DNA of 64,000 nucleotides from Paludibacter sp. (GTDB lineage Bacteria > Bacteroidota > Bacteroidia > Bacteroidales > Paludibacteraceae), in contig JBAXPM010000005.1 of assembly GCA_037132235.1 (NCBI GenBank), positions 13,320 through 77,319 of the forward strand, read 5' to 3'. This document shows positions 1,574-21,801 of this stretch, piece by piece. A program made the translations under genes and the position numbers. The notes below the pieces were generated by a model. It saw only the letters and a list, made by a program, of their open reading frames with translations, did no database searches and had not been told where the DNA came from. Numbering within the stretch: position 1 is the stretch's first letter; each line of letters begins with the position of its first letter.

Positions 1574-4500
1574 ATGAATCTATTAAGAAACATATTATTT
1601 TATATTCTTCTGGCTGTTTCGTTATCAGTTTACTCTCAAAATAAGGATAAAATTATAACGGTTTCATTCTCAAATATTGAATTATCTGATGCAATACAAC
1701 GAATTGAAAAGATGAGTAATTATAGCTTTTTCTATGATTCAATGATAATTGATTTAACACAGAAGGTAAGTTTGAATGTAGTGAATGTAAGCGTTAAACA
1801 GGCAATTGCAGAGATGCTTAAAAACAACTCTTTAGATTTTGAAATTACAAACTCACAAATAGCGATTTTTCCAATTAAATCTTTAAAATCAACAACACCC
1901 AAATCAGAAAAGAAACGAGTAATAGTAGGAAATGTAGTGGATGAAAAAAATGCAGAAATAATTGGAGCAACAGTAAAGATTAACGGAACAAATACCGGTA
2001 CAGTTACGGATATTAAAGGACATTTTTCTTTGGAAGTTGACAATTTAGATGTTTTAATGATTTCGTATCTCGGTTATGATTCTCAATTATTTGATGTTGC
2101 AGGTAAGACAAATTGTACTGTGAAACTATTACAGTCAGACCGTAAATTAGATGAAATTATCATTACTGCACAAGCACTTGGACAAAAAAATGCTATTCAG
2201 AAACAGATAAACTCGAATACTCTTAAAAATGTAATTTCAGCAGAGAAACTTCAACAGAATCCCGATGCCAACACGATTGAAGCAATAGGACGCTTACCGG
2301 GAATTTCTGTAAATCGCTCGGCTGGAGAAGGTGCCGGGTTTTTATTACGCGGTTTGGATCAGTCTTATTCCAAAATATTGATAAACGGAGAACCATTGGC
2401 AGTTGGGCTTAATGCAATTTCAACTTACTCATTACAAGGTGTTGAAGTTTATAAATCACTTACAGCTAATTTGGAGGGTAACGCTGTTGCAGGGTCTGTT
2501 GATCTTACTTTAAGAGAAACTCCTAAAGGATTACACTATTCGGCTATGGTTCAATCGGGTTATAATGCATTGAATAATGATTTTGGAAATTATAACTTCG
2601 TAGGGCTTATCAGCAATCGTTTTTTTAGCGATAAGCTGGGCGTTTTTTTCTCTGTGAATGCTGATAGAGTAAACCGAAGTACTAACTTGATTAGCGTGGG
2701 ATACAACACAAATTATACTACAAATTTGAATGATCCCTTTTATATTAGTAGCCTTAACTTTAATCTCAACGAACGAATAAATTATAAGCAGTCTGCAGTT
2801 CTCACGTTGGATTATATAGCAAGCAAATCAACCATTCTGAATTTTCAATCCTTCCTTTCAGCCAGTAATTTTTACTCATCCAGTCAATCAAAAAATTTCA
2901 GCCCCGAAGGTAATACAGCTACTGTACCGATTCGGGTGACAATGAGTGAGATCCCCGAATACCGTAACTACGGAATAACCAGTAATTTCAGTGGAAGGAC
3001 GAAATTAAAATTTCTGAATTCAGTATTAAATTATGGAATTAGTTATACCTACAATAACACCAAAACTCCTGGCACAAGAAACTGGAGTTATACTTCCGAA
3101 ACAAGAGCCGATGGTTTACATCGCGATAGTTTGAAAGTTTTTACACCCGCTCAGGTTGCCAATAGCTTTGATGAAATTCTGACAAATTTAGCTGGCACTA
3201 AATTAGAAAGTATGACTTATGATCAGACAGAGGCATATAATAGCAGTTTTACACCCCGGGTTGATTATGAAATACCATTTAAAAGCACAACAGGTATTCT
3301 GCATGGAAAAATTCAGATTGGAGCAAAATACAGGCAATCCCACAACTATTTAGATAGAACTGTCGGGGTTGGATATGCGGGGAATAATGCCATATTTGGT
3401 GATTTTATTAAAAACAACTATAACTGGCCGACTGGAATTGTTGAGTTGGTGGTTTCTGGGCAAGAAAATAATTTTATGGGAGGTAATTATCTATTTGGAG
3501 ATAAATATTCTTTTGAACGCAACAATCTGGTTTTTGATGCATGGCAGTTGAATGGTAAACAAAAATATCTTGCCGGATCGACTGGTGGTTTAGGTGATGA
3601 CCCCAAATACTCTGGTTTTGTTTACGATTTGAATTCATCAGCAATGAACGATATCAATGAGACTCATTACTATGGAGCAGGATATATTATGCCTGAAATT
3701 AATTTAGGGGAGTGGCTTATGATTATGCCCGGATTTAGATATGAATATGAAAAAGCCGATATGAAAGCGGTGAGAGGGAGTGAAGTAACCCGCAGTTATT
3801 CTGTTTATGAGAATATAAATACAGCATTCGGATTAAAAGATTCTGTGGCAACCCGCGAAGATAATTTTTTACTTCCAATGCTACATGTCAGGATCAAACC
3901 TACAAAGTGGTTTTATGCCCATTTTTCATATACCCATACGGTCAGACGACCTAGTAGTGGAGTTTCGCCGTTTGAGTATTACAATGCACAGGATGCTTCA
4001 AACTACTCATATACAGCAGGAAATCCGAAACTAAAGACAGAACTTTGGCGTAGTTATGATTTGCAATTCACATTTCATGCCAAAAAATTAGGGCTTTTTT
4101 CTATTACAGGTTTTAGCAAAACAGTTCAAGATAAATTGTGGTCGAGGTCTTATAAACGAATTTCAGGCGAACCGATTCCGAATCCGGTTTTTAAAGACAA
4201 TGATCTGGTGAATATGACTGTATACGAAAATCACCCTTATCCAATTTTACTGGAGGGCATTGAAACAGAATGGCAAACTTCATTTGGATTCTTACCCAAA
4301 CCATTTTCTTATTTGACATTAAGCGTTAATTATACTTATACTCACGGAAAATCGCCTAATCCGTACACCCAACTCTATAAATATAAACCTGCAGGATCAC
4401 GTTATGAGTTGACAGGAAGAAAAGATTCAGTGGTTATTGAACCTATGACCGGTGTTCCAGAGCATGTGGTTAACATAACCATGGGCATTGAAATTAAAAA

Positions 4501-4780
4501 TTTCAAAAGCTACTTGTCCTATCAATATTCATCACAAAAAATATTACAAACTCATCCGAATGATTTAAGACTTTATGTTATTTCTGAACCTTATAGCAGG
4601 TTAGATTTTAATGCATCCTATGGTTTTGAACTTAAGAACAAAGGCACATTGGAAATAATATTTAAAGCAGCCAACTTAACAAATAGCGAAGACCGGATTA
4701 GATACAGGGATGAAAAACGACCTATTAGCATTGAACAATACGGTGTTACAGCTGACTTAGGCCTGAGATATAAATTTTGA
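1574..4780 (+). CDS. TonB-dependent receptor with STN and CarboxypepD_reg-like N-terminal domains; not a canonical SusC
   Basis: Signal peptide, STN-like SFSNIELSDAIQRIEK, GTVTDIKGHFSL, plug ISAEKLQQNPDANTIEAIGRLPGISV, C-terminal LGLRYKF. Lacks the SusC PLYVLDGFP and ATAIYGARG motifs seen at 24591. Confidence 0.9.
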   Translation: MNLLRNILFYILLAVSLSVYSQNKDKIITVSFSNIELSDAIQRIEKMSNYSFFYDSMIIDLTQKVSLNVVNVSVKQAIAEMLKNNSLDFEITNSQIAIFPIKSLKSTTPKSEKKRVIVGNVVDEKNAEIIGATVKINGTNTGTVTDIKGHFSLEVDNLDVLMISYLGYDSQLFDVAGKTNCTVKLLQSDRKLDEIIITAQALGQKNAIQKQINSNTLKNVISAEKLQQNPDANTIEAIGRLPGISVNRSAGEGAGFLLRGLDQSYSKILINGEPLAVGLNAISTYSLQGVEVYKSLTANLEGNAVAGSVDLTLRETPKGLHYSAMVQSGYNALNNDFGNYNFVGLISNRFFSDKLGVFFSVNADRVNRSTNLISVGYNTNYTTNLNDPFYISSLNFNLNERINYKQSAVLTLDYIASKSTILNFQSFLSASNFYSSSQSKNFSPEGNTATVPIRVTMSEIPEYRNYGITSNFSGRTKLKFLNSVLNYGISYTYNNTKTPGTRNWSYTSETRADGLHRDSLKVFTPAQVANSFDEILTNLAGTKLESMTYDQTEAYNSSFTPRVDYEIPFKSTTGILHGKIQIGAKYRQSHNYLDRTVGVGYAGNNAIFGDFIKNNYNWPTGIVELVVSGQENNFMGGNYLFGDKYSFERNNLVFDAWQLNGKQKYLAGSTGGLGDDPKYSGFVYDLNSSAMNDINETHYYGAGYIMPEINLGEWLMIMPGFRYEYEKADMKAVRGSEVTRSYSVYENINTAFGLKDSVATREDNFLLPMLHVRIKPTKWFYAHFSYTHTVRRPSSGVSPFEYYNAQDASNYSYTAGNPKLKTELWRSYDLQFTFHAKKLGLFSITGFSKTVQDKLWSRSYKRISGEPIPNPVFKDNDLVNMTVYENHPYPILLEGIETEWQTSFGFLPKPFSYLTLSVNYTYTHGKSPNPYTQLYKYKPAGSRYELTGRKDSVVIEPMTGVPEHVVNITMGIEIKNFKSYLSYQYSSQKILQTHPNDLRLYVISEPYSRLDFNASYGFELKNKGTLEIIFKAANLTNSEDRIRYRDEKRPISIEQYGVTADLGLRYKF

Positions 4781-4838
4781 AAATATTAATTACAATTATT
4801 GACTTTAAACAAATAATTCACCTTAAAAAAACAATGAA

Positions 4839-6629
4839 ATGAGAAAATTAAATTTACTATTTATTTTATGTTTATTTGCAGGTACATTTATGGTATCGGC
4901 TATGGATATTATTGACGTTGCTCCAGGTGTTGGAACTCTCAATGCTGCCATAAAACAGTATAAAGGAGATAAGATTTATCGGTTGAAAGATGGTTATAAC
5001 GGCTATTATGTGTTGGACGAAATTATCAATAACACTGGATTTGATCTTACCATTATTGGGGGAGGAACACCTGATGTGGGCGATCCAAAACCGACAATGC
5101 CGGCAACACTTCAAACCAGTGGAACTGGTGGAACACCTTTCAATTATATGTTTAATGTATTTGCAAACATTACACTCAGAGGTGTTTACTTTGCAAATGC
5201 TACTGCTGATGGCGTATTTAATGCTCAGTTCTTTATGGGAATTTCAGGAAATGATATTCGGGTGGTAATTGACAAATGTGTATTAGACCCAGCCGGAAGT
5301 CCTATTTACTGCAACGGTGGAAGTCCCAAAATTTATTTGACAAATAATTTGTTTAACCGACTTACTGTTCAGACTACCAGTGTGAATGGTCCGGTAAACT
5401 TTTATTTCCCCAATGACCAAAGCGGAGTAGATACTTTATATGTTGAAAACAATACTTTCATTGGTTTAAGTACTGCTGTTTTTTCGGATAACAACGCACC
5501 TGTTAAAAGCGGATTCACATGGATAAACCACAACACTTTTATTCAACATAAATGTCAGATAGATTGGATGTCGAATCAGGAAAAGTTCTTTTTCACCAAT
5601 AATTTATTGTACGACTGCCACGTAATCCCTTATGAAAGAGCATGGGTAGGTGGTTGGGATAATTATGCTACAGGCAATGTTTCGGAATTGCTTTGGTCGG
5701 CACCCGATGCCATAGTCAAAGCAAATGGTGTGGATATTGACTGGGGATACAATAAAATGACAAGTTTTGTGGCAAATAATATCGAATTCAAAAACCCAAA
5801 GTTTTATACAAACCTGTCTGATTTAAAAACATGGGCAACGAGTGTCGGTGCTGCATGTACCATGTATTATCAACCTCTTGTTTGGACACCCGATGTCCCA
5901 TGTCAGAACAGAGGTATTGATATAACCACCGCATTAGCAAACAATCCACAATCGGCAATATACAACAGTACACAATTCCCAACATGGAAAGCTGCTAATA
6001 ATAAATACGACATTGATCCTACATTTACTGATGTGCGGATAAAACAAAAATCCGATATATTGGCTCAATGGGCATTGCCTGCTATCAAAAAAGACTATTT
6101 TGGAAGTTATTATACCTCGACTGCTCACACGAGTCTCGACTGGTACTGGGACCCTGATGGAAAACTTGGTCAGAATGATACCTGGCCACTGTTTGATGGT
6201 ACATACTCAAATACAACTGCTCAAACAGCAGGTTTGGATGGTTTACCTGTTGGGGATCTAAACTGGTTTTCTGCAAAGAAGACGATTTGGCAAAATAATA
6301 AAACTGCCATAGATGCCCACATTTTAGCTCTGAATTTAGAAAAAATGAATCTTACTGCTATTAATAATGTCAGTGCTGATAGGGTAAAACTAATTGATAA
6401 TTTTCCAAATCCTTGCAAAGAAGTAGTTAATTTCAGAATTTCTGAAAATCAAACTACTGAAACAAGAATAGCTATATTTAATACATTGGGACAAACAGTA
6501 GAGGTTCTTAATATTGGAAGGGGAATAACTGACTTTGCATGGAATGTAACAAAAATTAAATCGGGTACTTATTATTACGAAACAACTATCAATGGCATCA
6601 AGCAAAATGGTGTTTTATTGAAAAAATAA
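4839..6629 (+). CDS. T9SS-secreted parallel beta-helix protein (DUF4957/DUF5123-like)
   Basis: Signal peptide; Asn-ladder repeats (VENNTFI, INHNTFI, FTNNLLYD); GLPVGDLNWF motif; CTD (NFPNPCKE...IFNTLGQ...SGTYYY). Confidence 0.7.
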   Translation: MRKLNLLFILCLFAGTFMVSAMDIIDVAPGVGTLNAAIKQYKGDKIYRLKDGYNGYYVLDEIINNTGFDLTIIGGGTPDVGDPKPTMPATLQTSGTGGTPFNYMFNVFANITLRGVYFANATADGVFNAQFFMGISGNDIRVVIDKCVLDPAGSPIYCNGGSPKIYLTNNLFNRLTVQTTSVNGPVNFYFPNDQSGVDTLYVENNTFIGLSTAVFSDNNAPVKSGFTWINHNTFIQHKCQIDWMSNQEKFFFTNNLLYDCHVIPYERAWVGGWDNYATGNVSELLWSAPDAIVKANGVDIDWGYNKMTSFVANNIEFKNPKFYTNLSDLKTWATSVGAACTMYYQPLVWTPDVPCQNRGIDITTALANNPQSAIYNSTQFPTWKAANNKYDIDPTFTDVRIKQKSDILAQWALPAIKKDYFGSYYTSTAHTSLDWYWDPDGKLGQNDTWPLFDGTYSNTTAQTAGLDGLPVGDLNWFSAKKTIWQNNKTAIDAHILALNLEKMNLTAINNVSADRVKLIDNFPNPCKEVVNFRISENQTTETRIAIFNTLGQTVEVLNIGRGITDFAWNVTKIKSGTYYYETTINGIKQNGVLLKK

Positions 6630-6722: not shown

Positions 6723-7490
6723 ATGAAAATCAAATTATTACTTCTATTATTGTGCGTTTTCTCAATGGTTAATGCCCAAATTACATGGGATTTTAAAACA
6801 GGTGTTGAGGGATGGGGCTCATATGGTGATGATGTTACCGTATCTCATGATGGGTCAGAAAATCTTGTTCTGACTTACACCGGTGGAGCCGATGCTACTA
6901 TTTCATACCCTACAATTTATAATGATACTCCAGTAAATGTTGCCAATGTCAATTTTTTCTACATGAAATTTGCTGCAACCAACTGGCCTAAGTCTTCTGT
7001 ATTGGTCAATATTTATTTTGAGATGGGAGGCAATAACTATTATGCCAATCAAACGATGAATGTGTCGAGTGGAGAATTCTCGTTTAATATCAGAACGGAA
7101 GTACAACACACCTGGAGTGTTTTACCTGCAACCGGAACACCTTCCAGAATAAGAATAGAAATTCCACATAATTCTGAATTAGCCGGTTCAAACTGGAATG
7201 GTGCTTCAATCAAAATTGATAAAATTTCATTCTTAAATTCACTTACAACTGGATTGTCTGAAAAGAGCGAGTCTAATATTTTAGTTTATCCAAATCCGGT
7301 TTCCGAATCATTCCAAATAAAGGGTGGAAAATTTGATAATCTGTCCATTTACAATGCTACCGGAAAACTTATTAAATCGGTCAATGCAAACCTTAGCTCC
7401 ATATCGGTAGCTGACTTTGCCAAAGGCTTGTATTTTGTAAAAATTCATTCCAATGGAATTACAAAAGTTGAAAAACTGATTGTTGAATAG
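6723..7490 (+). CDS. Small T9SS protein: one unnamed CBM-like domain (type B) plus CTD
   Basis: Signal peptide; WDFKTGVEGW...RIRIEIPH...W...IDKISF, homologous to the second domain of 18730..21801; CTD VYPNPVSE...KGLYFVKI. Confidence 0.8.
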   Translation: MKIKLLLLLLCVFSMVNAQITWDFKTGVEGWGSYGDDVTVSHDGSENLVLTYTGGADATISYPTIYNDTPVNVANVNFFYMKFAATNWPKSSVLVNIYFEMGGNNYYANQTMNVSSGEFSFNIRTEVQHTWSVLPATGTPSRIRIEIPHNSELAGSNWNGASIKIDKISFLNSLTTGLSEKSESNILVYPNPVSESFQIKGGKFDNLSIYNATGKLIKSVNANLSSISVADFAKGLYFVKIHSNGITKVEKLIVE

Positions 7491-7587
7491 AATTTTCTAA
7501 AATCATAAACTATTTACTTCACCACGCTGCAATTTGTCTGTTACTAAGACAAATTACTGTGTTGGTATAATTTCACACACTTATATC

Positions 7588-10500
7588 ATGCATAAATTCA
7601 GGTTATTACTGTTTTTTTTCTGTCTTGTCTCGTTATCTTCTATTGCGCAAACGTCATGGACTTTTGATACAAACCTTCAAGGTTGGCACGACCTAGGTGA
7701 TGGGCGCGATGTAACAGCAAGTTGGGAAAACGGGAATTTAAAAATGACTTATTCGGAGCGTTCACCAACAAATGGACCTCAGTTGTGGTTTCCTGCAGTA
7801 CAGGTTGATAATCTGAATTTTAGTGCAGCTTCCTATCCTTATTTTGAAATTTACTATCAGGCAAACTGGCCAACTGTTTTAAACGGAAAGGTGCTGATGA
7901 CACTTACAAAAACAGATAATACGGTTGTTCACTCATTTTTTGATTTCGACCCTACCGAGAATTTTATTTCGGTAGATATTGCTGCCAATGTACGTACGGA
8001 CTGGAATGGAAAGGCTTATGATGGGCAAATAAAATCAATACAATTGGAACTTCCGCACAATTCAAGTACCATTGCTAATCCGGCTACCAATTGGTTTGGG
8101 CTTAATACGCTGATTGATAAGATAAATTTAACTGCAACCCAAACACCTAAGCCCGACAACAGAAAGACAGTTAAATGGTCGTTTGAAACCAATTTTACGG
8201 ATGATGCTGCTCAGTTTGTTTGTGCTACTTCGGGTACTCCGGGTATAAATACCAGCAATTTTAAAAACGGAAAAGCTGCTTTGTATTTAGATGGTGACAG
8301 TTATCTTACAATACCCACAAATTCACTTTTCACATCGAAAGAACAAACCATATCATTTTGGATTAAAACGATTGGTAGTGCTCAGAAATACAGTTCGACA
8401 CCCGCAAACTTGTTCTCGTATAACAATGGAAACTACGATTTAGCCATTAATGGAGGTAAACTTAATTTTCAGAAAACATCACGTATTTGGGACAACCTAA
8501 CCACATGGAATAGTGGTGATTGGCAGCATGTGTCAATTGTAAACGAAAGGAATGTAATGACTTGTTACCTCAACGGAAAAAAATCAGTTGAATTGTTGAA
8601 TGTCCCGATGACAAACAGAACTGGTAATATTGTCATTGGAAATGGCGGATTAATGGCATATATCGACGATTTCTCGGTATATAATTATGCGCTCACTTCT
8701 ACAGAAATTGCTGCTCAAGGGTCGGTACCTTTAAATACAATCAGCGCATGGACATTTGATAAAGACCTTGAAGGTTGGCATGAAATTCAGGATGGAGTTG
8801 ACAGAGATGTTACATTGAGTTGGGAAGCCGGTGATATGAAACTGACTTATACGAATAAAGCGCTTACAAACGGACCACAATTGTGGTTTCCTCAGGTGGA
8901 AGTTGATACCAAGTTTGATGCATCTCTTTATCCTTACTGCGATATTTATTATCAAACTGTAGGTTGGCCGGTTTCCACTCCGGTGAAGGCAGTGCTGGAA
9001 ATGACCAAAGCAGATGGAACGATAGTATATTCCAATTTTGATATTGATCCAACACTAAATTTTGTTCGTGTTGATTTTTCAAACAGCATTCAAAGTAATG
9101 GTTCGGCTTATTCGGGTGAGATAATTAAAGTGCGATTAGAGTTACCTCAAAATACTTCAGCAACACCTGCTGGAAGTTGGTTTGGTGCATCGACAAAAAT
9201 TACAAAAATTGAATTCAAAGATGTTCAACCTACTGTAGATGCAAATTGGGATAGTTTGCTTGGTAAAAGTGCGTTCATAAAATCTGGTTTGACTAAATTG
9301 AATCGAGATGATTATCAATATCAGCCCATAGGTTTAGGTGGAACAACCATGCGTGTCGACCCCTGGGGATTTGGTTTTACAAAAGCACCTATGGCAAATC
9401 CGGGTACGTGGCATCCGCACGAACCATACCTTAGTTATCAGTATTGGTGGGATAATGCAGGTCATAGGTTTAATCCTTTCCTGCTGAAAGCAGGATATGG
9501 TGCAGCACTCAATCCCGGAACAATTACTGCTTTTAATCAAAAATTAGATATTCGTACCGGTGAACTCAGCATTGATCTGGGACTAACTGTTGATGGAACA
9601 ACATTCATTTCCAAACGAACAGTACTTGTTACTCCCGATGGTGTATTAGTAATCAGGGTTCAGGATACTGGAGCACCATCGCCATTGCAAGTCAATATAG
9701 CAGTAGAGCAGGATGTTCGAATATATAATAATGCCGGCATTTATAATGTGTCGCACGATCCATTTACCGGTTCAGCCACTTCACGCGAACAAAACAGCAC
9801 AAAAGGAACTGTGGTAACTGCAACCCGACCCAACACCAGCACCGCTTCGTTGGCAGTTGCGGTTGAGAGTGCTTCGAATGTTACAATAAGTACAGATAAT
9901 CAGATTGTAAGTACAACAGATCCAAACGGCATCGTAACTTACTATATTGCACCGACTTCATCATTCAACCCACTTACTCCAACAGTTACTTGGGATCATG
10001 CATGGAATGCTGCATACACAGCAAAACAAAAAGGATACGAAACGCTACGTCAGGAAACGGCAACGTGGTGGACTAACTATTTCAATCGTTCAAGAATTTC
10101 AGTGCCCGACGAAACAGTTCAGAAATTGTATATGCAATCGCTATATTATCATGGCGTTTACTTTGGAAATACCAAAATTCCCCCTGGATGTAATTCTACC
10201 GATATTGAAAGTTTTGGTGGAGCAGTTTGTCCCGAATATGATTTGGTTCTTAGTCAGTTAGCATTGCTATACACGGGTCATATTAGTGAATCTAAAAACA
10301 TCGCCGACTGGACGTATAGCGTGTTGCCAACAGCCAAATCAAATGCTGTAAATGGAATTACACACCATAATGTAACCAGAAAGTACGATAACGGTGCTAT
10401 TTACACTACCTTAATGGGTTATGATGGCGCACTTGGCGTTCAGCCAACAGTAAGTGAAGGAGCTAATCTGAATCAGAATTATCCGGGTGCAAATGCGTCA

Positions 10501-11712
10501 CTAATGGCACTTTCGTATCTCGATTATAGCAATGATGATACTTTTAAGGATAAAGCATTTGATATTCTGAAATCAACGACCTATGTATCGTTGCAGGATT
10601 TGACCTTTAATGGAAAAACCTATCAATGCAAAAATATGCCAAATACCGTTCAGCAAGCTTCGATACTTTACGGATATAATCAATGTGTAAAACGTGGAAT
10701 TGCTGATGTAGCATGGAGCATTTATGACGGAAAAATACTTATTCCTCAATCGACATTATTTGGTGATACGCTTATTGCCGGTGGTGCAGGAGCTTCCAGT
10801 CAGGAAGGTGTTGGCGATGCTACCTGGTTAACGCATGTTTGGTTTCACAATGTGGTAGATAAACATGACACCAAGGTATTGCCTAGTTATATCAACTCTG
10901 CAAAAACTACTACCGGCGATTACGTCTTCAATAATGGTACTATGGGTGTTGTAGCAGCCAAACTTGGATTGGGAAATGATGCATTATCGTGGTTGCAAAA
11001 ATACCAGCGTACCGACATTTTGTACGATGAAACCTGTTTTACAGAATCGAAAGGGCAACTGTTTTTGACTCCCGAAATAGGGGCGCATGGAACCTATATC
11101 TGCAACCTTACACAAATGTTGCTTGACCCTGATAATGAACAGAAATTAGATGTTTTCCCGGCAATACCAGACAGTTGGGAATATCGTCAGATAGGATTCG
11201 ACAGCTTAATGGCAAAAGGTGGCCTGAAAATTACCGCCACCCGTGATATCCAAAGTGTCAAAGTTGAACTAAAAAACTGTTCGAAACAGTCAGTAAGCAG
11301 AGAAGTAAGTATAAAGATTCCCCGCATGCTTGATGTGGATGGATTGTCATCATCGGATCTAAAAAACGGTTGTATTGTAAATAGTGTTTCGCTTCAACCC
11401 AACGAAACAAAGTTACTTGCATATAATTTCACGCCATCAAAAATTATATCCTCAATTCATACTATCACTACCGATACTGATGCGCTGAAATATAAAATCT
11501 ATCCAAATCCGAATTCAACCGGTTTGTTAAACGTGGCAAATGGTGAAAATGTAGATGAAGTTCAGATTTACTCATTAAAAGGAGAACTCTTAATGTCACG
11601 ACAGGGCAAAATAAATTCATATTCAATTAGTCAGTTAAACGCTGGAATTTATATTGTGTCTTTAAAGATTAACAAAAATCACTCAGTGAAACACATTTTG
11701 CTTGTAAAATAA
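7588..11712 (+). CDS. Multimodular T9SS enzyme: CBM-like / LamG-like / CBM-like / GH95- or GH65-like (alpha/alpha)6 domain / CTD
   Basis: ATG 7588 gives a clean signal peptide. LamG-like TISFWIK...WQHVSIV...YLNG...IDDFSVYNYAL. Catalytic-region motifs LRQETATWWTNYFNRSRISVPD and VFPAIPDSW. CTD IYPNP...AGIYIVSL. Confidence 0.7.
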   Translation: MHKFRLLLFFFCLVSLSSIAQTSWTFDTNLQGWHDLGDGRDVTASWENGNLKMTYSERSPTNGPQLWFPAVQVDNLNFSAASYPYFEIYYQANWPTVLNGKVLMTLTKTDNTVVHSFFDFDPTENFISVDIAANVRTDWNGKAYDGQIKSIQLELPHNSSTIANPATNWFGLNTLIDKINLTATQTPKPDNRKTVKWSFETNFTDDAAQFVCATSGTPGINTSNFKNGKAALYLDGDSYLTIPTNSLFTSKEQTISFWIKTIGSAQKYSSTPANLFSYNNGNYDLAINGGKLNFQKTSRIWDNLTTWNSGDWQHVSIVNERNVMTCYLNGKKSVELLNVPMTNRTGNIVIGNGGLMAYIDDFSVYNYALTSTEIAAQGSVPLNTISAWTFDKDLEGWHEIQDGVDRDVTLSWEAGDMKLTYTNKALTNGPQLWFPQVEVDTKFDASLYPYCDIYYQTVGWPVSTPVKAVLEMTKADGTIVYSNFDIDPTLNFVRVDFSNSIQSNGSAYSGEIIKVRLELPQNTSATPAGSWFGASTKITKIEFKDVQPTVDANWDSLLGKSAFIKSGLTKLNRDDYQYQPIGLGGTTMRVDPWGFGFTKAPMANPGTWHPHEPYLSYQYWWDNAGHRFNPFLLKAGYGAALNPGTITAFNQKLDIRTGELSIDLGLTVDGTTFISKRTVLVTPDGVLVIRVQDTGAPSPLQVNIAVEQDVRIYNNAGIYNVSHDPFTGSATSREQNSTKGTVVTATRPNTSTASLAVAVESASNVTISTDNQIVSTTDPNGIVTYYIAPTSSFNPLTPTVTWDHAWNAAYTAKQKGYETLRQETATWWTNYFNRSRISVPDETVQKLYMQSLYYHGVYFGNTKIPPGCNSTDIESFGGAVCPEYDLVLSQLALLYTGHISESKNIADWTYSVLPTAKSNAVNGITHHNVTRKYDNGAIYTTLMGYDGALGVQPTVSEGANLNQNYPGANASLMALSYLDYSNDDTFKDKAFDILKSTTYVSLQDLTFNGKTYQCKNMPNTVQQASILYGYNQCVKRGIADVAWSIYDGKILIPQSTLFGDTLIAGGAGASSQEGVGDATWLTHVWFHNVVDKHDTKVLPSYINSAKTTTGDYVFNNGTMGVVAAKLGLGNDALSWLQKYQRTDILYDETCFTESKGQLFLTPEIGAHGTYICNLTQMLLDPDNEQKLDVFPAIPDSWEYRQIGFDSLMAKGGLKITATRDIQSVKVELKNCSKQSVSREVSIKIPRMLDVDGLSSSDLKNGCIVNSVSLQPNETKLLAYNFTPSKIISSIHTITTDTDALKYKIYPNPNSTGLLNVANGENVDEVQIYSLKGELLMSRQGKINSYSISQLNAGIYIVSLKINKNHSVKHILLVK

Positions 11713-11763
11713 AAAATAAATTATTCATAAAATATGGCTATTGCCAACAAAAGATTATTCGAA

Positions 11764-13473
11764 ATGAGAAAAACATTTTTATTATCAACGGTTATTCTAG
11801 TGACGTTAAGTCAACTAATTTTAGCACAAAAAAAGACCGACCCTTCCAAAAACGGTCGAGCAGGATTCGATTATTTTGTAGGTATTGTAGGTAGTCCTTC
11901 GGTTATTGAAGATATAAGATGGGACGACAAACAACTGACAGATTTAAAGGAACTGGGCGTAAATATGCTCCAGTTGAGCATAGCATGGGGTGGAAAACCC
12001 GATAACGAAGTAATCAATCTCGAAGATTTGGACGATAAAGTGCAGATTGACAAATGGAAATTCCGAATTGCTCAATGTAAAAAACATGGACTCAAAACGT
12101 TGGCTCACTTTGGAATTCCACGCGTTCTGAACGCTAATCCGGTAAAGCCAGCCTGTATTTCTGATCCTGAAGTTCAGCAGAAATACGTTCAAATGATGAA
12201 TAAGTTTATGGCCACTTTTCCGGAAGTGAACGATGTGTTGATTTATACTTACGACCAGCAAGCATGGATTTGCAGCGAGTTTGGTCCTTGTCCGCGTTGT
12301 TCGGGTATTCCTATCAGCGATCGCTTACCTAACTTTATCAATATGTTGAAAAAAGCCATGCAAGAATCACGTCCGGGAGTAAAAACGATGCTCTGGTGGA
12401 AACCATGGGAACTCTCCAAAGGACAAACAATAGATATAGTGAAAAAAATTGATTCCGATGGTTTTGGTTTAATGCTGAATTCTTCGACCAGCAACGAAGT
12501 ATATCCTTTTAACGATGGCTCATTAAAATCGGATTTAGGCGTAAAACGTTTGGTGCAAAATGCTTACGAGCGGAATATCCCTGTTGTGGGTGAGTTTGAC
12601 CATACGCTTTACAAAGGATTGTATCAAATCGACGATTATTTTCCACGTTTGATTTACGAGCAAATGGCCGGTTGGAAAGAAATTACTGGTGTGGTAGGCG
12701 TAAAAGAATATTATGGTTTTGCTCCTTCAACCTATTCGGTGAATTATGCCATGCTTCATGCCTGGATGAAAAACCCGAATGCAACGGTGGGTGAATTGTT
12801 GAACCAGATTGCAGCACCTTATGGAAAAAAAACAGCTCCAATCATGATAAAAGCATGGGAATATGTGGCTCAGGCAGTGGAGGCATTTCCGTGGGATGTT
12901 ACTTATTTGATTGGTCCTATGGGATTAGATAAAGGAGAAAATGGTGAGCACAGCTGGGATTTTGTGAAAATTATCAATGGTACCTGGGATACACCAATTT
13001 GGGAGTCGAACCGTAGGGCAAACTTTATGCTGACCGACTCAAAAACTGCTCACCCATGGATATTTGAAGATACCGGTTTGCGGTTAGAAGACGCAGCGCA
13101 ACTTAATTTCAAAGCTGTTGAATTCTTCAATCAGGCTATTGCTCAAAACGAAAGTAAGGTTGAAGATATTACTAAACAAAGAGATTTTGTACAGCATACT
13201 GCCCGCTCTTTAAGAGGGAAAAGCATTCATTACGCACTAACAATTGCTGCACAGGATGCTCGAACAGTGGCTTATGACAAAGCGCAGTTCGAAAAAGTTT
13301 GTGCCCGTATAAAAAAACTGTTGGAACTCGATGTAAATAATGGTTACAAATTGGCGGCTGTAAAACTGGAAGAGTTTAATAAAAATCCAAAAACGTGGTT
13401 AGAGAGAAATTTCAATCCGCTTACTTATAAGTCTGAAGCAGAACCAAACTGGAGTAAATGGATTGCTCCCTGA
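11764..13473 (+). CDS. Uncharacterised exported protein, probable TIM-barrel glycoside hydrolase; paralogue of 16497..18302
   Basis: SPI-type signal peptide from ATG 11764. LKELGVNMLQLSIAWG and YTYDQQAWICSEFGPCPRC motifs are shared with the paralogue. Confidence 0.6.
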   Translation: MRKTFLLSTVILVTLSQLILAQKKTDPSKNGRAGFDYFVGIVGSPSVIEDIRWDDKQLTDLKELGVNMLQLSIAWGGKPDNEVINLEDLDDKVQIDKWKFRIAQCKKHGLKTLAHFGIPRVLNANPVKPACISDPEVQQKYVQMMNKFMATFPEVNDVLIYTYDQQAWICSEFGPCPRCSGIPISDRLPNFINMLKKAMQESRPGVKTMLWWKPWELSKGQTIDIVKKIDSDGFGLMLNSSTSNEVYPFNDGSLKSDLGVKRLVQNAYERNIPVVGEFDHTLYKGLYQIDDYFPRLIYEQMAGWKEITGVVGVKEYYGFAPSTYSVNYAMLHAWMKNPNATVGELLNQIAAPYGKKTAPIMIKAWEYVAQAVEAFPWDVTYLIGPMGLDKGENGEHSWDFVKIINGTWDTPIWESNRRANFMLTDSKTAHPWIFEDTGLRLEDAAQLNFKAVEFFNQAIAQNESKVEDITKQRDFVQHTARSLRGKSIHYALTIAAQDARTVAYDKAQFEKVCARIKKLLELDVNNGYKLAAVKLEEFNKNPKTWLERNFNPLTYKSEAEPNWSKWIAP

Positions 13474-13512: not shown

Positions 13513-15033
13513 ATGAACAGGTTTCTTATTCCGGTTTCGGTATTGTTCTTTTCAGCATTGGTGAATGCTGAAAAGAAAGCACAACCTAACATTCTGTTTT
13601 TGTTGAGCGACGATCAGCGCTGGGATTCACAGGGCTGTTTTGGAAACAAAACAGTAAATACACCCGAGATTGACCTTCTTGCTGCCGAAGGAGTTCGGTT
13701 TAGCAATTCTTTTGTTACTTTTTCGGTGTCGTCGGCTAGCCGGGCAGTTATTCTCACCGGCATATATTCTCGTTCGCGTTCAAATGGTGCGGATGATTTA
13801 CCGGCAATTTGTACGCCGGAGAATTGGGAAAATACTTTTCCTGCTTTACTAAAAAAGAACGGATATTATACCGGATATATTGGTAAATGGGACATTGGAG
13901 TGGGTGAAAATGGGTTTCAACATGGAATGAATTTATTTGATTATTGGGGAGGCGATCGTTGGCATGGCAATTACTGGCACGAAAAGGATTGCAATTTTGT
14001 GACCAACGATGGAATAGCTCATAAAAAAGAAATCAGGTGTACGTGTGTAACCGGTAATGCCTGGGATGCTTCGCTTCCGCGAACTGGAAATAATGGCTTG
14101 GTTCATCCTATTCACACCGATGTAGAGGTGGTTCCAATGAAAGTCAAAACGTTTTTGGCATCGAGAGATAAACAAAAACCATTCTTCTTACAGGTTTCAT
14201 TCAGGTCGCCAAAAGATCCGTGGTCTGATTATCCAGTTGAAGTGAAAGATTATTATACCGATGATTCTATTGCAATATCACCAACAGCCAATTTGCAAAA
14301 TGCATTGTCACAGCCGGAGTTTCTTCAAAAATCAATGGCTGCAAACCATGCAAGAAATTTACTGAGAACAAAAGGATTGTTAGAGAATGAAATACGTAAG
14401 CATTATCGACTTGTAACTGGGATTGATATGTCTATTGGCAAACTCCGAAAAATATTGGCAGAGCAAGGCATTGAGGATAATACTATTATCGTATTTGCTT
14501 CAGATAATGGCACTTTTTTGGGAGAACATGGTTTTTGGGGTAAATGGCTGCCTTACGAAGAGTCTATGCGCGTTCCCCTGATAATTTATGACCCGCGCAT
14601 TAAGAAAGAAAGCGGTGGAAAAATAGTTGACGAAATGGTGCTGAATGTGGATTATGCGCCTACTTTTCTCGCATTTGCAGGCATAAAAACACCACGGTAT
14701 ATGCATGGAATGGATATTGGAAAACTTATGGCGGATGAAAAGATTAGCTGGAGAACCGACTGGTATTATGAACACAGCTGGTCTGCCAAAAGTCTTGATT
14801 CAACGGTAACACCAATTATTCCATCAGAAGCTGTCAGGACAAAAGAATGGAAATATATTTTATTCCCAAATCAGCAAGTAGAACAACTCTTTAATATTAA
14901 TAATGATCCCTTTGAAACTGTTGATTTAATCGCTAATCCATCGAATAAAAAGATGTTGGAAAAGCTAAGAGGAAGAATGAATTATTATAGAAAGTTATAC
15001 GAAAAAAGCAAGTTGAAAATTCGCAACATTTGA
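13513..15033 (+). CDS. Formylglycine-dependent (S1) sulfatase, Ser-type
   Basis: PNILFLLSDDQR, S-S-A-S-R-A-V-I-L-T-G, GYYTGYIGKW, SDNG...GEHG...GK...YEESMRVPLI; signal peptide. Confidence 0.92.
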   Translation: MNRFLIPVSVLFFSALVNAEKKAQPNILFLLSDDQRWDSQGCFGNKTVNTPEIDLLAAEGVRFSNSFVTFSVSSASRAVILTGIYSRSRSNGADDLPAICTPENWENTFPALLKKNGYYTGYIGKWDIGVGENGFQHGMNLFDYWGGDRWHGNYWHEKDCNFVTNDGIAHKKEIRCTCVTGNAWDASLPRTGNNGLVHPIHTDVEVVPMKVKTFLASRDKQKPFFLQVSFRSPKDPWSDYPVEVKDYYTDDSIAISPTANLQNALSQPEFLQKSMAANHARNLLRTKGLLENEIRKHYRLVTGIDMSIGKLRKILAEQGIEDNTIIVFASDNGTFLGEHGFWGKWLPYEESMRVPLIIYDPRIKKESGGKIVDEMVLNVDYAPTFLAFAGIKTPRYMHGMDIGKLMADEKISWRTDWYYEHSWSAKSLDSTVTPIIPSEAVRTKEWKYILFPNQQVEQLFNINNDPFETVDLIANPSNKKMLEKLRGRMNYYRKLYEKSKLKIRNI

Positions 15034-15057: not shown

Positions 15058-16473
15058 ATGAAGACTAAGGTAGGATTATTTGGAATAGGACTTGATACAT
15101 ATTGGGCTCAATTTGAGGGATTACTCGACAATTTGAAAACATATCAGGAAGAAATCAGAAAACGCATCTCAGAATTTGGAGTGGAAGTTGCGGATGCTGG
15201 TATGGTGGATAATCCGGTGAAAGCCTGCGAGGCCGCCGACTATCTGAAAGCACAGGATGTGGAAATTGTGTTTCTATACGTTTCCACCTACGCGCTGTCT
15301 TCAACTGTATTACCGGTGGCTCAAAAACTAAAAGTGCCTGTTGTAATACTGAATTTACAACCTGTTGCCCAACTCGATTACGAGGCGTTTAATAAGTTGG
15401 GAGACCGTGGCAAAATGACCGGTCTATGGTTAGAACATTGTCAGGCTTGCTCAGTTCCGGAAATTGCCAGCGTATTTAATCGCTCAGGAATTCAGTATGA
15501 TTTTGTAACTGGATATCTTCATGATGAGGATGCCTGGGGTGAAATTGAAGCATGGACGGAAGCTGCACGAGTTGCAAACGCTTTACAAAACAACCGCATG
15601 GGAATTTTAGGGCATTATTACGGTGGTATGCTTGATGTGTATACCGATGTAACCAAACAATCAGCTGTGTTCGGAACTCATTTTGAAATGCTTGAAATGT
15701 GTGAACTTAAAAAATATCGTGATGACGTTACTGACAACGAAGTTAAGGCAAAAATTGAAGAATTTAATGTTGCTTTTGATATTGCTCCCGAATGTGAACT
15801 GAATGAAATAGAACGCGCAGCACGCACTTCCATTGCACTCGACAAATTAGTGGTAAATCATAATTTGGGTTCGATGGCATATTATTACGAAGGAGAATCG
15901 GGCAACGATTATGAAAATATCGTCACCTCGGTTATTGCCGGAAATACTTTACTTACTGGAAAGAATATTCCAGTAGCGGGTGAATGTGAGGTGAAGAATG
16001 CACAAGCAATGAAAATCATGGCTGAATTTGGTACCGGAGGTTCATTTTCGGAATTCTACCTAATGGATTTCAACGATGATGTAGTCATGCTTGGACATGA
16101 TGGCCCTGCTCATTTTGCCATTGCCGAAGGTCGTGTACGATTAGTCCCATTACCAATCTACCATGGAAAACCGGGTAAAGGATTATCTATCCAGATGACC
16201 GTGAAACACGGGCGGGTTACCTTACTTTCGGTAGTGGAAGGCAAAGATGGAGTGTTTCTGTTAGTTGCTGAGGGTGAATCAGTAGAAGGACCAATACTTG
16301 AAATTGGAAATACAAATAGTCGTTATCGTTTCCCAATTGGTGCAAAGCGATTTATGAATGAGTGGTCGAAACAAGGCCCTGCACACCATTGCGCCATTGG
16401 AGTTGGACATATTGCGGATAAAATTGAAAAGCTCGGTCAGATATTAGGAATTGAAGTTGTGGAAATTTGTTGA
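15058..16473 (+). CDS. L-fucose/L-arabinose isomerase family protein
   Basis: No signal peptide; ACSVPEI, AGECEVK, GHDGPAH and GPAHHCAIGVGH metal-binding motifs. Confidence 0.8.
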   Translation: MKTKVGLFGIGLDTYWAQFEGLLDNLKTYQEEIRKRISEFGVEVADAGMVDNPVKACEAADYLKAQDVEIVFLYVSTYALSSTVLPVAQKLKVPVVILNLQPVAQLDYEAFNKLGDRGKMTGLWLEHCQACSVPEIASVFNRSGIQYDFVTGYLHDEDAWGEIEAWTEAARVANALQNNRMGILGHYYGGMLDVYTDVTKQSAVFGTHFEMLEMCELKKYRDDVTDNEVKAKIEEFNVAFDIAPECELNEIERAARTSIALDKLVVNHNLGSMAYYYEGESGNDYENIVTSVIAGNTLLTGKNIPVAGECEVKNAQAMKIMAEFGTGGSFSEFYLMDFNDDVVMLGHDGPAHFAIAEGRVRLVPLPIYHGKPGKGLSIQMTVKHGRVTLLSVVEGKDGVFLLVAEGESVEGPILEIGNTNSRYRFPIGAKRFMNEWSKQGPAHHCAIGVGHIADKIEKLGQILGIEVVEIC

Positions 16474-16496
16474 GTTTCAAAAATAGAATTATCATT

Positions 16497-18302
16497 ATGA
16501 GTAAACAACTAATTTATATTTCATTGCTTATTGCACTGTTATCCTCTTGTAAACAAGTAGATACAAACCAGTCACTACAATACAAAGTTGGTATTTTGGG
16601 TGCTCCCTCTTCGCCCAATGTGGAATGGAACGACAAAAACATGGAGTTGATGAAAGAGCTGGGTTTCAATACCATGCAGCTTAATATTGCGTGGGGATAT
16701 CGTCCGGCTGATAATGCACTAAATCTCGAAGATGTGATTCCAGTTCCGGCTGAATTTCGATTGCCGGTTGATAACGATTCTACCCTGAATCAGAATAACG
16801 GTGGCTCCAAACGGTATTTACACAGTAAAGAACGTATTGCAAAACGTGCTGCAGAACTGAAGCATCGTATTGCTATGTGTAAAAAACACGGGATGCGTAC
16901 CATATTTCATTTTGGAGCTCCTTATGTGGTTTATCCTGCTGTAGAGCCACTTTCGCAATGCATTTCGGACCCTAAAACTATAAAACGTTATACAAAATTG
17001 ATTGAAAACTTTCACAAGGAATTTCCCGGAGTCGACGATTTATTGATGTATACTTACGATCAAAATGCCTGGTTGTGTAGCGAAGATGGACCATGCGAAA
17101 GCTGCAGTGCTGTTCCGTTGGATAAGCGTGTTTCCAATTTTGTGAATGTTTTAGCACAAACATGGAAAAAGCTGAATCCTGATGGTCGACTTTGGTGGGA
17201 ACCATGGGAAATTTCTGCCGGACAAACCTACGCTGCTATCGAAAAACTTGATGCCAGTTGCGTCGGTTTATCAATTCATTCGAGCATTACCGAAGTACAA
17301 ATTGCCACGCCAGCTGATCGTTGGTTTAAAAATGTTCTGACATTGGCAGTTGAACGTAAAATCTCTGTTTTAGGCGAAGTTTGGTTGGGTACTGCTACTG
17401 AAGAAATCGAGCCTTATATTTATTTGCCTTCACCGCTTACTACATTGAGAGCATTGCGAGCAATGAATAATGCTGGTAAACTTGCCGGAATAAAAGAGTA
17501 TTATGGCAATATTCCTGACCGTGAAGACCCAAATCTTCGAATGGCATCCATATTCTTTCACAAACCGGGAATCACCGATGTTAAAGCACTTGAATTGTTA
17601 GCTGAACCGTATAAAAATGCTTCAGAAAAAATTCAACTCTATTGGAAATATTCATCCGAAGTTATCGAAATGTACCCCTGGGATATTTCGTGGTTTAGTC
17701 GTGAGGTTGGAAGGAGCGATCCACAGCACTTACTTTCTGAAGCCACGTTGAAAGGTGCTTCGTGGGTAACACCATCATGGCTGTCGAACCGCAGAGCAGC
17801 ATTTATGCGTACGGTAGAAACCGATCAGCCACACTTTTGGATGTTGGAAGATGCACAGCTTCGTTTCGAAGCAACAGCCCGAAAAGTGGATCAGGCATTA
17901 GTGGCAGCTGAAGAAGCAAGAAAAGATATTCCAACGAAATATCTTGCTGAATTTGACATGGGAGTAAAAGAGTTGATTGGTTTTAAACAGCGTTGTTTGG
18001 CTTATACTTATCACATTAGGGAAACAAATCTTTGTAAAATAATGAGACGTTCGTTGACCAAAACAGGTAAGGTAAATGATGTAAACTTAACTGAATTAAG
18101 AACCACACTTTTAAAAGACCAACAAAACCAAGGGGCAAAAAATCGGCTTACACCGGCTGTTGAACTTCTGGACAAAGATGTGAAAAGTTTCTTAAAGAAG
18201 TATTTCAATAAACCTTTACCATCAGGTGTAAAAGCAGATATGTATTTTAATGATTCATTGCCACCCAATGTAAAAACAGTGTGGACACTAACATCAAAAT
18301 AG
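16497..18302 (+). CDS. Uncharacterised lipoprotein, probable TIM-barrel glycoside hydrolase; paralogue of 11764..13473
   Basis: Lipobox LLSSC from ATG 16497. MKELGFNTMQLNIAWG, YTYDQNAWLCSEDGPCESC, GIKEYYG and SNRRAAFM motifs. Confidence 0.6.
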   Translation: MSKQLIYISLLIALLSSCKQVDTNQSLQYKVGILGAPSSPNVEWNDKNMELMKELGFNTMQLNIAWGYRPADNALNLEDVIPVPAEFRLPVDNDSTLNQNNGGSKRYLHSKERIAKRAAELKHRIAMCKKHGMRTIFHFGAPYVVYPAVEPLSQCISDPKTIKRYTKLIENFHKEFPGVDDLLMYTYDQNAWLCSEDGPCESCSAVPLDKRVSNFVNVLAQTWKKLNPDGRLWWEPWEISAGQTYAAIEKLDASCVGLSIHSSITEVQIATPADRWFKNVLTLAVERKISVLGEVWLGTATEEIEPYIYLPSPLTTLRALRAMNNAGKLAGIKEYYGNIPDREDPNLRMASIFFHKPGITDVKALELLAEPYKNASEKIQLYWKYSSEVIEMYPWDISWFSREVGRSDPQHLLSEATLKGASWVTPSWLSNRRAAFMRTVETDQPHFWMLEDAQLRFEATARKVDQALVAAEEARKDIPTKYLAEFDMGVKELIGFKQRCLAYTYHIRETNLCKIMRRSLTKTGKVNDVNLTELRTTLLKDQQNQGAKNRLTPAVELLDKDVKSFLKKYFNKPLPSGVKADMYFNDSLPPNVKTVWTLTSK

Positions 18303-21700: not shown

Positions 21701-21801
21701 CTGATATGACTCAATTGAAAAAATCATTGGCTACCGGAGTTTACATGGTAACGGTAACCAATGCAGGTAAGAGTGTAACACAAAAAGTAATTATTAAATA
21801 G
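18730..21801 (+). CDS. Non-catalytic T9SS protein ending PUL1: CBM-like type A, type B, 2x FN3, conserved unnamed C-terminal domain, CTD
   Basis: N-terminal domains match 7588 and 6723. Two FN3 repeats (PTNIVATAGNAQASVAFTAP...YTFTVTARN). GFNLVGNPYPSYLDW domain is shared with 39229..43146. Confidence 0.85.
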   Translation: MKKKLFLFLCFLSIVLTVNAQTVWNFTSDLEGWHDLGAGRDVAASWQSGALKMTYLDGGNAGTQLWFAAVQVDNLSFAAANYRYLELNYQANNWPTSSPVKMLVTLTKTDNSLVYSYIDIDPTKNFLSIDIQANNPGWGQTYSGTIKSIQLELPHNGAAASNPATNWYSASTLIDKIKVTNTQTPQDIAWDFATTIEGWNPYGDDVTTSHSGSNLVVTYTGGGDGVYAYPTIYKDVSIDAANIDQFYMKFTAHNWVKTSVLVNIVFEIGGTPYYANQTMTVANGEFTFDIRDGILANWGKLPLTGNISRIRIEIPHSSQSGTPSDWNGATLDIDRIVFSKKQIPDPPTNIVATAGNAQASVAFTAPASNGGSTILDYTVTSSPGGLTQTGASSPIVVTGLSNGTAYTFTVTARNSVGSSAASSASSAITPKTVPGAPTIGTATAGNAQASVAFTAPASNGGSSIIDYTVTSNPGSITATGASSPLVVTGLTNGTAYTFTVTARNSAGSGSASDASNSITPVSPSVTVSSDANLSSYSPSSATDVTVSAGTLTVDVDATVKTMTVAPGAKLTLASGKSLSVVGALTLHSDASATATFVDNGGTLTAGTTNVQQYLTSGRNWYVSSPVSGAKSDVFSASSGSPVYSYDEVHGSTTPWPTITNTTTDLTVMKGYVTTVPSNGVITFSGTLNTGAQEIGLTQTSGQVKNGFNLVGNPYPSYLDWSSITKTNMLTTMWYRTKTSGDVYTFDTYNASGNIATSNGAKAVTNLIPPMQAFWVHVQTGFASSTLSVTNNQRAHADNSSNTFKAKASIEAQSVLRLEVSNGTNSDQALVNFNSNASNGLDSYDSPKLSNESASIPEIYTLAGTEQVVINGVNDLNQLTLGFTTGEANNFTIKTSQFANFASGTQIILRDNLLNYEQDLTLGDYNFYSDVTANNETRFTVLFKAPSVATGINPNSNGNVWISIANNQIVVNGASAGTSVAVYNAVGQKIMSDMTQLKKSLATGVYMVTVTNAGKSVTQKVIIK

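Follow-up and report, generated by a model that had tools for sequence, protein, structure and literature searches.

A non-SusC TonB-dependent transporter and a predicted T9SS-exported beta-helix protein form a conserved gene pair in Paludibacter and its relatives

A transporter gene with a beta-helix neighbour

What stands beside a TonB-dependent transporter (TBDT) of an apparent glycan utilisation locus in Bacteroidota when no SusD is encoded next to it? This question is raised by the first part of a 64,000-nucleotide stretch of Paludibacter sp. DNA, here called the window (GenBank assembly GCA_037132235.1, contig JBAXPM010000005.1, positions 13,320 to 77,319), in which the gene of a 1068-residue TBDT (window 1574-4780, + strand) is followed after a gap of 58 bp, on the same strand, by the gene of a 596-residue beta-helix protein of an unnamed family (4839-6629) carrying a C-terminal sorting domain (CTD) of the type IX secretion system (T9SS). 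Pfam, NCBIfam and AlphaFold2 were used to describe the former, and CTD models, AlphaFold2 and VIA-align the latter. As set out below, the two genes form a unit that recurs in several phyla, and we see about an even chance that the beta-helix protein is the surface glycan-capture partner of the transporter.

The absence of SusD from the first 22 kb of the window, as stated in the original prediction, was borne out both by protein domain scans and by a six-frame PF07980 search of the whole genome. The latter returned 17 matches, the sole one on this contig (28980-29423) belonging to the SusD of a second locus. The host genome holds about 17 canonical SusC genes or SusC-SusD pairs.

The transporter possesses the plug (residues 218-307) and beta-barrel (residues ~321-1068) of a general TBDT (2225-4777; PF07715 53 bits, PF00593 66 bits, and the strand pattern of the model), preceded by an STN signalling domain (residues 50-100, 1721-1873; PF07660, 47.2 bits) and a CarboxypepD_reg-like N-terminal extension (CarbopepD_reg_2, residues 117-196, 1922-2161; PF13715, 50 bits), all on the + strand. 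The original prediction held that this N-terminus is SusC-like but that the plug and barrel are not. Comparison with hidden Markov models (HMMs) agrees with this view. Indeed, residues 117-262 alone match the SusC model TIGR04056, at 101.1 bits for a cut-off of 368, so that the CarboxypepD_reg extension and the start of the plug are the sole part resembling SusC, and the NCBIfam scan found no match to the SusC signature TIGR04057, whereas the SusC encoded at 24591, taken as a control, reaches 867 bits on TIGR04056 and 63.6 bits on TIGR04057. On the other hand, TIGR01782 (TonB-Xanth-Caul) is aligned from residue 192 to 1068 over its entire length (positions 1-868 of 868) with 261.9 bits, below the curated cut-off of 310; by sequence score it is therefore the closest named subfamily, although the transporter is not a member at the NCBI threshold. 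The AlphaFold2 model (mean predicted local distance difference test, pLDDT, 86.2) leads to the same conclusion, as Foldseek aligns it at E 1e-28 to PhuR and other TBDTs and the nearest solved folds are PhuR, PirA, FoxA, PfeA, HasR and FecA, the first SusC appearing at rank 42. Taken together, HMM scores and nearest folds validate the earlier description: the transporter is a classical 22-strand-type barrel of the Xanthomonas/Caulobacter carbohydrate type, and not a SusC.

The protein encoded next to it begins with a signal peptide of the signal peptidase I type, which ends in VSA and has no lipobox, its Cys lying outside any lipobox. The mature part was modelled by AlphaFold2 from a 60-sequence alignment with high confidence (pLDDT 90.3, predicted TM score 0.80). 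It comprises a right-handed parallel beta-helix (residues 23-317, 4905-5789), a helix/loop subdomain (residues 320-500, 5796-6338) that varies among subfamilies except at its end and, after a short linker, an immunoglobulin-like T9SS type-A CTD (residues 519-595, 6393-6623), all on the + strand. The helical fold is apparent from the rung strands over residues 105-317 and from the turns ENNTF, NHNTF and TNNL, which lie one rung apart and form a conserved Asn ladder of structural nature; VIA-align confirms the beta-helix. The CTD scores above the cut-offs of PF18962 (34.3 bits, cut-off 27) and TIGR04183 (26.5 bits, cut-off 23) and matches the T9SS-bound CTDs 8glj_D and 8glk_D; with the Sec signal and a T9SS encoded in the genome (PorU, 1150 bits; PorV, 523 bits), the protein has the features of type-A cargo. 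It has neither PF07980 nor a lipoprotein signal, its fold differs from that of the SusD/RagB family, and no homology to SusD was detected in it even at E 0.1.

The original prediction was right in calling this protein a CTD-bearing beta-helix protein, but not in making it end in GLPVGDLNWF: this motif, at residues 468-477, closes the part that precedes the CTD. It is the core of a family signature, W449-P450...Y456...GLPxGDLNWF...K481 (6183-6281, + strand), which is the most conserved stretch of the protein, with invariant columns in two alignments. Because the profile search with the first of them (A1) was swamped in the relatives by CTD-only matches, full-length rows only were used and a CTD-free alignment (A3) was rebuilt; conserved residues were placed by the secondary-structure positions of the model. 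Over three subfamilies, conservation is limited to the ENNTF, NHNTF and TNNL turns and to the aromatic-rich 449-481 motif while the remainder varies, and the block 461-480 keeps the same consensus in 55% of its columns. Furthermore, D198, E203 and H231 are conserved on successive rungs.

In whole-model Foldseek searches of the PDB and of AFDB clusters, the CTD dominated and TM scores were low, which made VIA-align over all representatives necessary. With this tool, the beta-helix protein is superimposed on about 50 beta-helix structures with Z scores of 14-28. The best match is the C-terminal domain of BcAlyPL6 (7dmk, chain 426-747, Z 28.3), followed by that of AlyGC (5gkd, chain 440-727, Z 23.4), all other beta-helices having Z 19 or less. 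The family sequence profile finds the same two domains (E 3e-4 and 1.4e-3, respectively), with the N-terminal cap and the rung motifs aligned. The resemblance does not make the protein a member of polysaccharide lyase (PL) family PL6, since it is confined to the non-catalytic C-terminal domain of these enzymes. Pfam and NCBIfam contain no family for the protein other than its CTD, and a Pfam scan of 60 family members retrieved Beta_helix (PF13229) in six and weak DUF4957 matches (6e-4) in two, with no match to a glycoside hydrolase (GH) or PL family, including the PL6 catalytic domain, in any of them.

Some family members are longer (690-870 residues; L019:4808-7075, L033, L035, L039, L045, L061, P0062, P0065 and P0068) and harbour, between the beta-helix part and the CTD, an extra domain of the F5/8 type C (PF00754) or fasciclin type. 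A structure-related Balneolota cluster has a CBM35 as its extra domain.

The pair in other genomes

The original prediction presumed that the two genes belong together. Searching species-representative genomes with a pattern of the signature motif revealed at least 577 relatives or loci, of which 80 loci were fetched, and 59 beta-helix copies had at least 3.3 kb of upstream DNA. In 48 of these 59 copies, the same strand carries a homologue of the transporter whose end is no more than 600 bp upstream; it lies within 3 kb upstream in 52, allowing one intervening gene, and directly downstream in two more, so that 54 of 59 are linked. Among the five others, one is separated by 3.2 kb from an upstream transporter next to which a copy of its own is already found, and four are without any transporter (L068:2098-6588, L055:4639-10010, L049 and L057), the upstream gene being a GH106 rhamnosidase in two cases and a GntR regulator or a GH120 in the others. 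Transporter-less copies are often surrounded by sulfatases. The pair was also present on seven of seven further contigs reached by exact protein look-up.

The linkage holds in the reverse direction as well. When 121 genomes of the order, one per genus, were searched at E 1e-50 with the plug and barrel only (residues 190-1068), eight genomes matched, and the beta-helix gene is directly downstream at all eight loci, other than the window's own, for which downstream DNA is available. All 45 partner transporters scanned match TIGR01782 and none of them bears the SusC signature. In the window genome itself, this transporter type and the beta-helix protein are each encoded once, by adjacent genes. 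The pairing is thus conserved when approached from either gene and the receptor does not score as SusC, which leaves the association proposed in the original prediction standing on both counts. Two partner transporter genes appear broken: L008:4740-7829 has an internal stop and L089:6893-9887 is called as two open reading frames (ORFs) of 398 and 518 residues, which reflects either decay or assembly errors of metagenome-assembled genomes (MAGs).

Trees of both proteins, built from 41 pairs, are congruent: patristic distances are correlated with r 0.906, a value that none of 2000 Mantel permutations reaches, and the nearest neighbour is shared in 33 of 41 rows. Where two pairs occur on one contig (L010, L043), they fall into separate, matching clades in both trees. 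As linked inheritance alone can give such congruence, what the trees show is joint movement and duplication of the pair, and not contact between the two proteins.

Carriers of the pair belong to the Bacteroidales (MAGs of Paludibacter, Tannerella and Prolixibacteraceae), the Ignavibacteriota (Melioribacter and Ignavibacteriaceae), Calditrichota and KSB1, together with a few bins that are doubtful. When 1.84 billion representatives were searched with the profile, about 1450 clusters (50% identity) were obtained at E 1e-30, looser thresholds including CTD-only matches. Of 24 other genomes of the window genus, 6 contain full-length beta-helix members, and of the 120 other genera of the order that were searched, 7 contain the transporter clade; the number of full-length copies per carrier ranges from one to three. 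Given this patchy carriage, the pair behaves as an accessory module in Bacteroidales. The original prediction was right that similar pairs occur in Ignavibacteria-like lineages, as Melioribacter and Ignavibacteriaceae carry them, but a recent import of the Paludibacter pair from there is not supported: in both trees the window pair shares a long branch with that of a Tannerella MAG, and the sister group of this branch is a clade made up of Bacteroidota only (support 88 for the beta-helix protein and 98 for the transporter), so that the pair falls outside the Ignavibacteriota rows and is not nested among them. GC content is ordinary. The original prediction is upheld in what it observed (the ORFs, the receptor type, the lack of SusD and the CTD-bearing beta-helix), and in part in how it interpreted it.

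The genes that surround the pair differ from one relative to another. The locus P0017, whose protein is 58% identical to that of the window, shares an unnamed enzyme and a LamG protein with the window and also contains RhaM, a sugar kinase, RhaA and RhaT, under an AraC regulator. Relatives at about 30-36% identity are accompanied by GH78, GH106, GH20, GH28 and sulfatases, a GH78/GH20/GH106 locus being under the control of a hybrid two-component system (HTCS) and a GH28/GH106/sulfatase locus under that of LacI. At 23-25% identity, the neighbours are GH115/GH3/GH9/esterases, GH95/GH43 or GH94/GH130/GH125, with LacI- or XylR-type regulators where a regulator is seen. Regulators of the ECF (extracytoplasmic function sigma factor), AraC, LacI and HTCS types are thus all found with the pair, as are enzymes for rhamnose, xylan or mannan, which indicates that the beta-helix family follows the transporter and not one enzyme class or regulator. 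In the related loci, every FecR-linked transporter is long (at least 1070 residues) and STN-bearing, and elsewhere the transporter starts at the CarboxypepD_reg domain.

What the beta-helix protein may do

In the reading we favour, the head of the window is the start of a glycan utilisation locus of about 22 kb on one strand. Engagement of the substrate by the transporter would switch the locus on through a trans-envelope relay made of the STN domain, FecR and the ECF sigma factor. The beta-helix protein would cross the outer membrane via the T9SS, the PorU sortase would cleave the sorting domain, and the protein would stay on the cell surface. Its task at this site would be to bind the target glycan, or oligosaccharides that the T9SS-exported enzymes of the locus have released, and to hand them to the transporter. 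It would thereby stand in for SusD (surface glycan-binding protein A, SGBP-A), with fold, export route and anchor all unrelated to those of SusD. Retention at the surface, binding of glycan, lack of catalysis and contact with the transporter are all four properties that we infer. The role of partner is proposed because of the gene linkage and because the closest relative is a non-catalytic glycan-binding domain. Indeed, the C-terminal domain of a two-domain PL6 lyase is catalytically inactive, binds polyguluronate and docks on the catalytic domain with a Kd of 6.9 uM (PMC12992946). Furthermore, a constant 449-481 motif in an otherwise variable protein is the pattern expected of a constant interface combined with variable ligand sites. 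A more specific proposal is that the beta-helix protein and the non-SusC transporter build a stable surface complex, a lipoprotein-free structural counterpart of SusCD, that would act as the import module in the SusD-poor Ignavibacteriota, Calditrichota and KSB1 and as an accessory beside SusCD in some Bacteroidales; we regard this as unlikely on balance.

Several observations weigh against a capture partner. The four transporter-less copies out of 59 imply that the beta-helix protein can work without the transporter, adjacent co-inherited genes yield congruent trees without any physical interaction, and type-A CTD cargo is sometimes released to the medium instead of being anchored. Moreover, D198, E203 and H231 could be a metal or active site, and inserts of the carbohydrate-binding module (CBM) type, F5/8 type C or CBM35, as found in some members, are more typical of enzymes. 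The last two points would suit an endo-acting glycanase or lyase that belongs to a new family, is secreted by the T9SS, cuts the polymer at the surface and has its gene kept beside the transporter of its products. The fold is common to many lyases, to GH28/GH141 hydrolases and to phage depolymerases (Z 14-19), the orphan copies lie among GH106 rhamnosidases and sulfatases, and rhamnose enzymes are clustered around the relatives that are 30-36% identical. However, the best structural match, by a wide margin, is a non-catalytic domain and no GH or PL model is matched, while the conserved Asn and His of the turn motif repeated on successive rungs make up a structural ladder. It is also improbable that one catalytic chemistry would suit rhamnose-sulfate, xylan and mannan loci alike, and the linkage to one transporter clade is far tighter than that of bona fide enzymes of such loci. 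An enzymatic role is thus possible, but we consider it somewhat unlikely.

A stronger form of the capture-partner reading would make the beta-helix protein a true SusD-like lid, opening and closing on the extracellular face of the barrel in the pedal-bin manner. The gene occupies the same position as that of SusD, in one copy per transporter and with matching trees, and the invariant motif could serve as a hinge or an interface. Such a role is nevertheless distinctly improbable for a rigid and elongated beta-helix, unrelated to the tetratricopeptide repeat (TPR)-like SusD and devoid of a lipid anchor that would tether it near the barrel; in addition, the barrel is nearer to classical TBDTs than to SusC, and transporter-less copies exist. 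At the other extreme, the two genes might merely be co-transcribed neighbours, the beta-helix protein being a general T9SS adhesin or a structural protein of the cell surface with no role in uptake. T9SS cargo is indeed very numerous in these genomes, and many loci hold several CTD proteins. This is very improbable in view of a reciprocal linkage that extends over at least four phyla and four regulator types, and of the single such transporter and single such protein of the window genome being adjacent.

The locus and its place among known systems

The regulatory part of the proposed relay lies immediately upstream of the pair. An ECF sigma factor gene (1-450, + strand) is cut at its 5' end by the window edge, its ORF being open at the window start, so that the locus begins upstream of the window; its product matches Sigma70_r2 and r4_2 as well as TIGR02985 at 139 bits (cut-off 126) over model positions 20-162 only. 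It is followed by the gene of a FecR-type anti-sigma factor (487-1533, + strand; PF04773 69.9 bits, PF16344 (FecR_C) 57 bits). Together with the N-terminal STN domain, these neighbours give the transporter the hallmarks of a TonB-dependent transducer, with a signalling role predicted from the sequence, and bear out the wiring to ECF and FecR that had been proposed.

All genes in the first ~22 kb of the window lie on the + strand. Downstream of the pair are encoded a T9SS cargo protein of 255 residues (6723-7490), a T9SS cargo protein of 1392 residues with a LamG domain and a weak GH65N-like match (GH95-65-like; 7534-11712), an unnamed protein of 579 residues (11734-13473), a sulfatase (13513-15033), a sugar-isomerase-like protein of 471 residues (15058-16473), an unnamed paralogue of the 579-residue protein with 611 residues (16467-18302) and an fn3-rich T9SS protein of 1023 residues (18730-21801). 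The two paralogues were considered as hidden SusDs and rejected, for they match neither SusD nor any PDB sequence. The isomerase-like protein has weak matches to L-arabinose isomerase (58.9 bits) and to the sulfoquinovose isomerase SftI (55.4 bits), and in L021, L024 and L037 copies sharing 81-85% identity with it are encoded close to beta-helix pairs; it may represent an unnamed sugar isomerase associated with the loci of the pair. A promoter and terminator scan of the locus did not differ from shuffled sequences and says nothing about an operon. Judging from the neighbouring genes in the window and in the relatives, the likeliest substrate is a rhamnose-containing sulfated glycan.

A second, canonical locus occupies positions 22743-43146, with an ECF sigma factor, FecR, the SusC at 24591 and a SusD at 27948, and with enzymes of families GH43 (one with RicinB and a T9SS CTD) and GH36, a GH-aldose epimerase fusion and a 1305-residue T9SS protein. 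The presence of this SusC/SusD locus in the same genome implies that both uptake designs run side by side.

As in SusC/SusD (RagA/RagB), the window pair consists of a TBDT gene followed by that of an exported partner at the head of a glycan-degrading operon, with a CarboxypepD_reg extension and, in some cases, ECF/anti-sigma/STN control, and it has been duplicated and diversified as a unit. It differs from SusC/SusD in its barrel, which is of another type than SusC, and in its partner, which is a beta-helix instead of a TPR-like protein and carries a signal peptidase I signal together with a T9SS CTD where SusD has a lipoprotein anchor; the complex, moreover, is putative. TIGR01782 describes the carbohydrate TBDTs of the CUT (carbohydrate utilization containing TBDT) loci of Xanthomonas and Caulobacter, a group cited in PMC13543919. 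The window barrel aligns with the full model and would likewise be a SusD-less importer among genes of carbohydrate-active enzymes, but its score is 261.9 versus 310 and it differs by its CarboxypepD_reg extension of the Bacteroidota type, its STN domain and its dedicated T9SS partner gene, which proteobacterial CUT loci are not known to have.

The window protein also shares the N-terminal cap and rung motifs of the C-terminal beta-helix domain of PL6 enzymes (BcAlyPL6 7dmk, AlyGC 5gkd, BoPL6). In contrast to this domain, to which it is only 12-18% identical, it is a free-standing, secreted module without lyase domain that possesses about 165 additional residues (the helix/loop subdomain), the invariant GDLNWF motif and a T9SS CTD. 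A classical barrel fed by a dedicated secreted or surface protein is known from the hemophore system HasR/HasA and from TbpA/TbpB, which import haem or iron. The transporter model has both HasR and TbpA among its closest structures, but HasA and TbpB are of an unrelated fold and use other export routes than the beta-helix protein. Finally, DUF4957/DUF5123 beta-helix surface proteins, like the window protein, are encoded near uptake genes, in polysaccharide utilisation loci (PULs) of Bacteroides; these are lipoproteins beside a SusC/SusD pair and do not replace SusD, and the Pfam scan found no DUF4957 match in the window protein.

No published description of the transporter/beta-helix pair was found in the full-text literature, a coverage outside which most subscription journals fall, and T9SS and beta-helix partners are both absent from a September 2026 review on glycoside transporters of bacteria. 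The table of the xylan cluster of Rhodothermus marinus lists, without comment, the TonB receptor Rmar_1070 followed by the hypothetical T9SS-sorting-domain protein Rmar_1071 (PMC6987092). These two may be a cultured and tractable instance of the pair, with Rmar_1071 as a candidate member of the family.

The pair is a well-supported genomic unit of what is predicted to be a transporter-plus-partner type of glycan import. Glycan uptake in Bacteroidota and their relatives is currently predicted via SusC/SusD pairs. Loci that use this pair are missed, and the partner is annotated only as a "T9SS sorting domain protein". The family is large, and several of the phyla over which it is spread play an important part in sediments, sludge and soils. 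Should the partner indeed bind glycan and dock on the transporter, the pair would represent a second, independently evolved way to feed polymers into a TonB-dependent barrel. It would furthermore link the T9SS directly to nutrient import, offer a new marker by which to recognise polysaccharide loci, and add a new scaffold that binds carbohydrate without catalysis.

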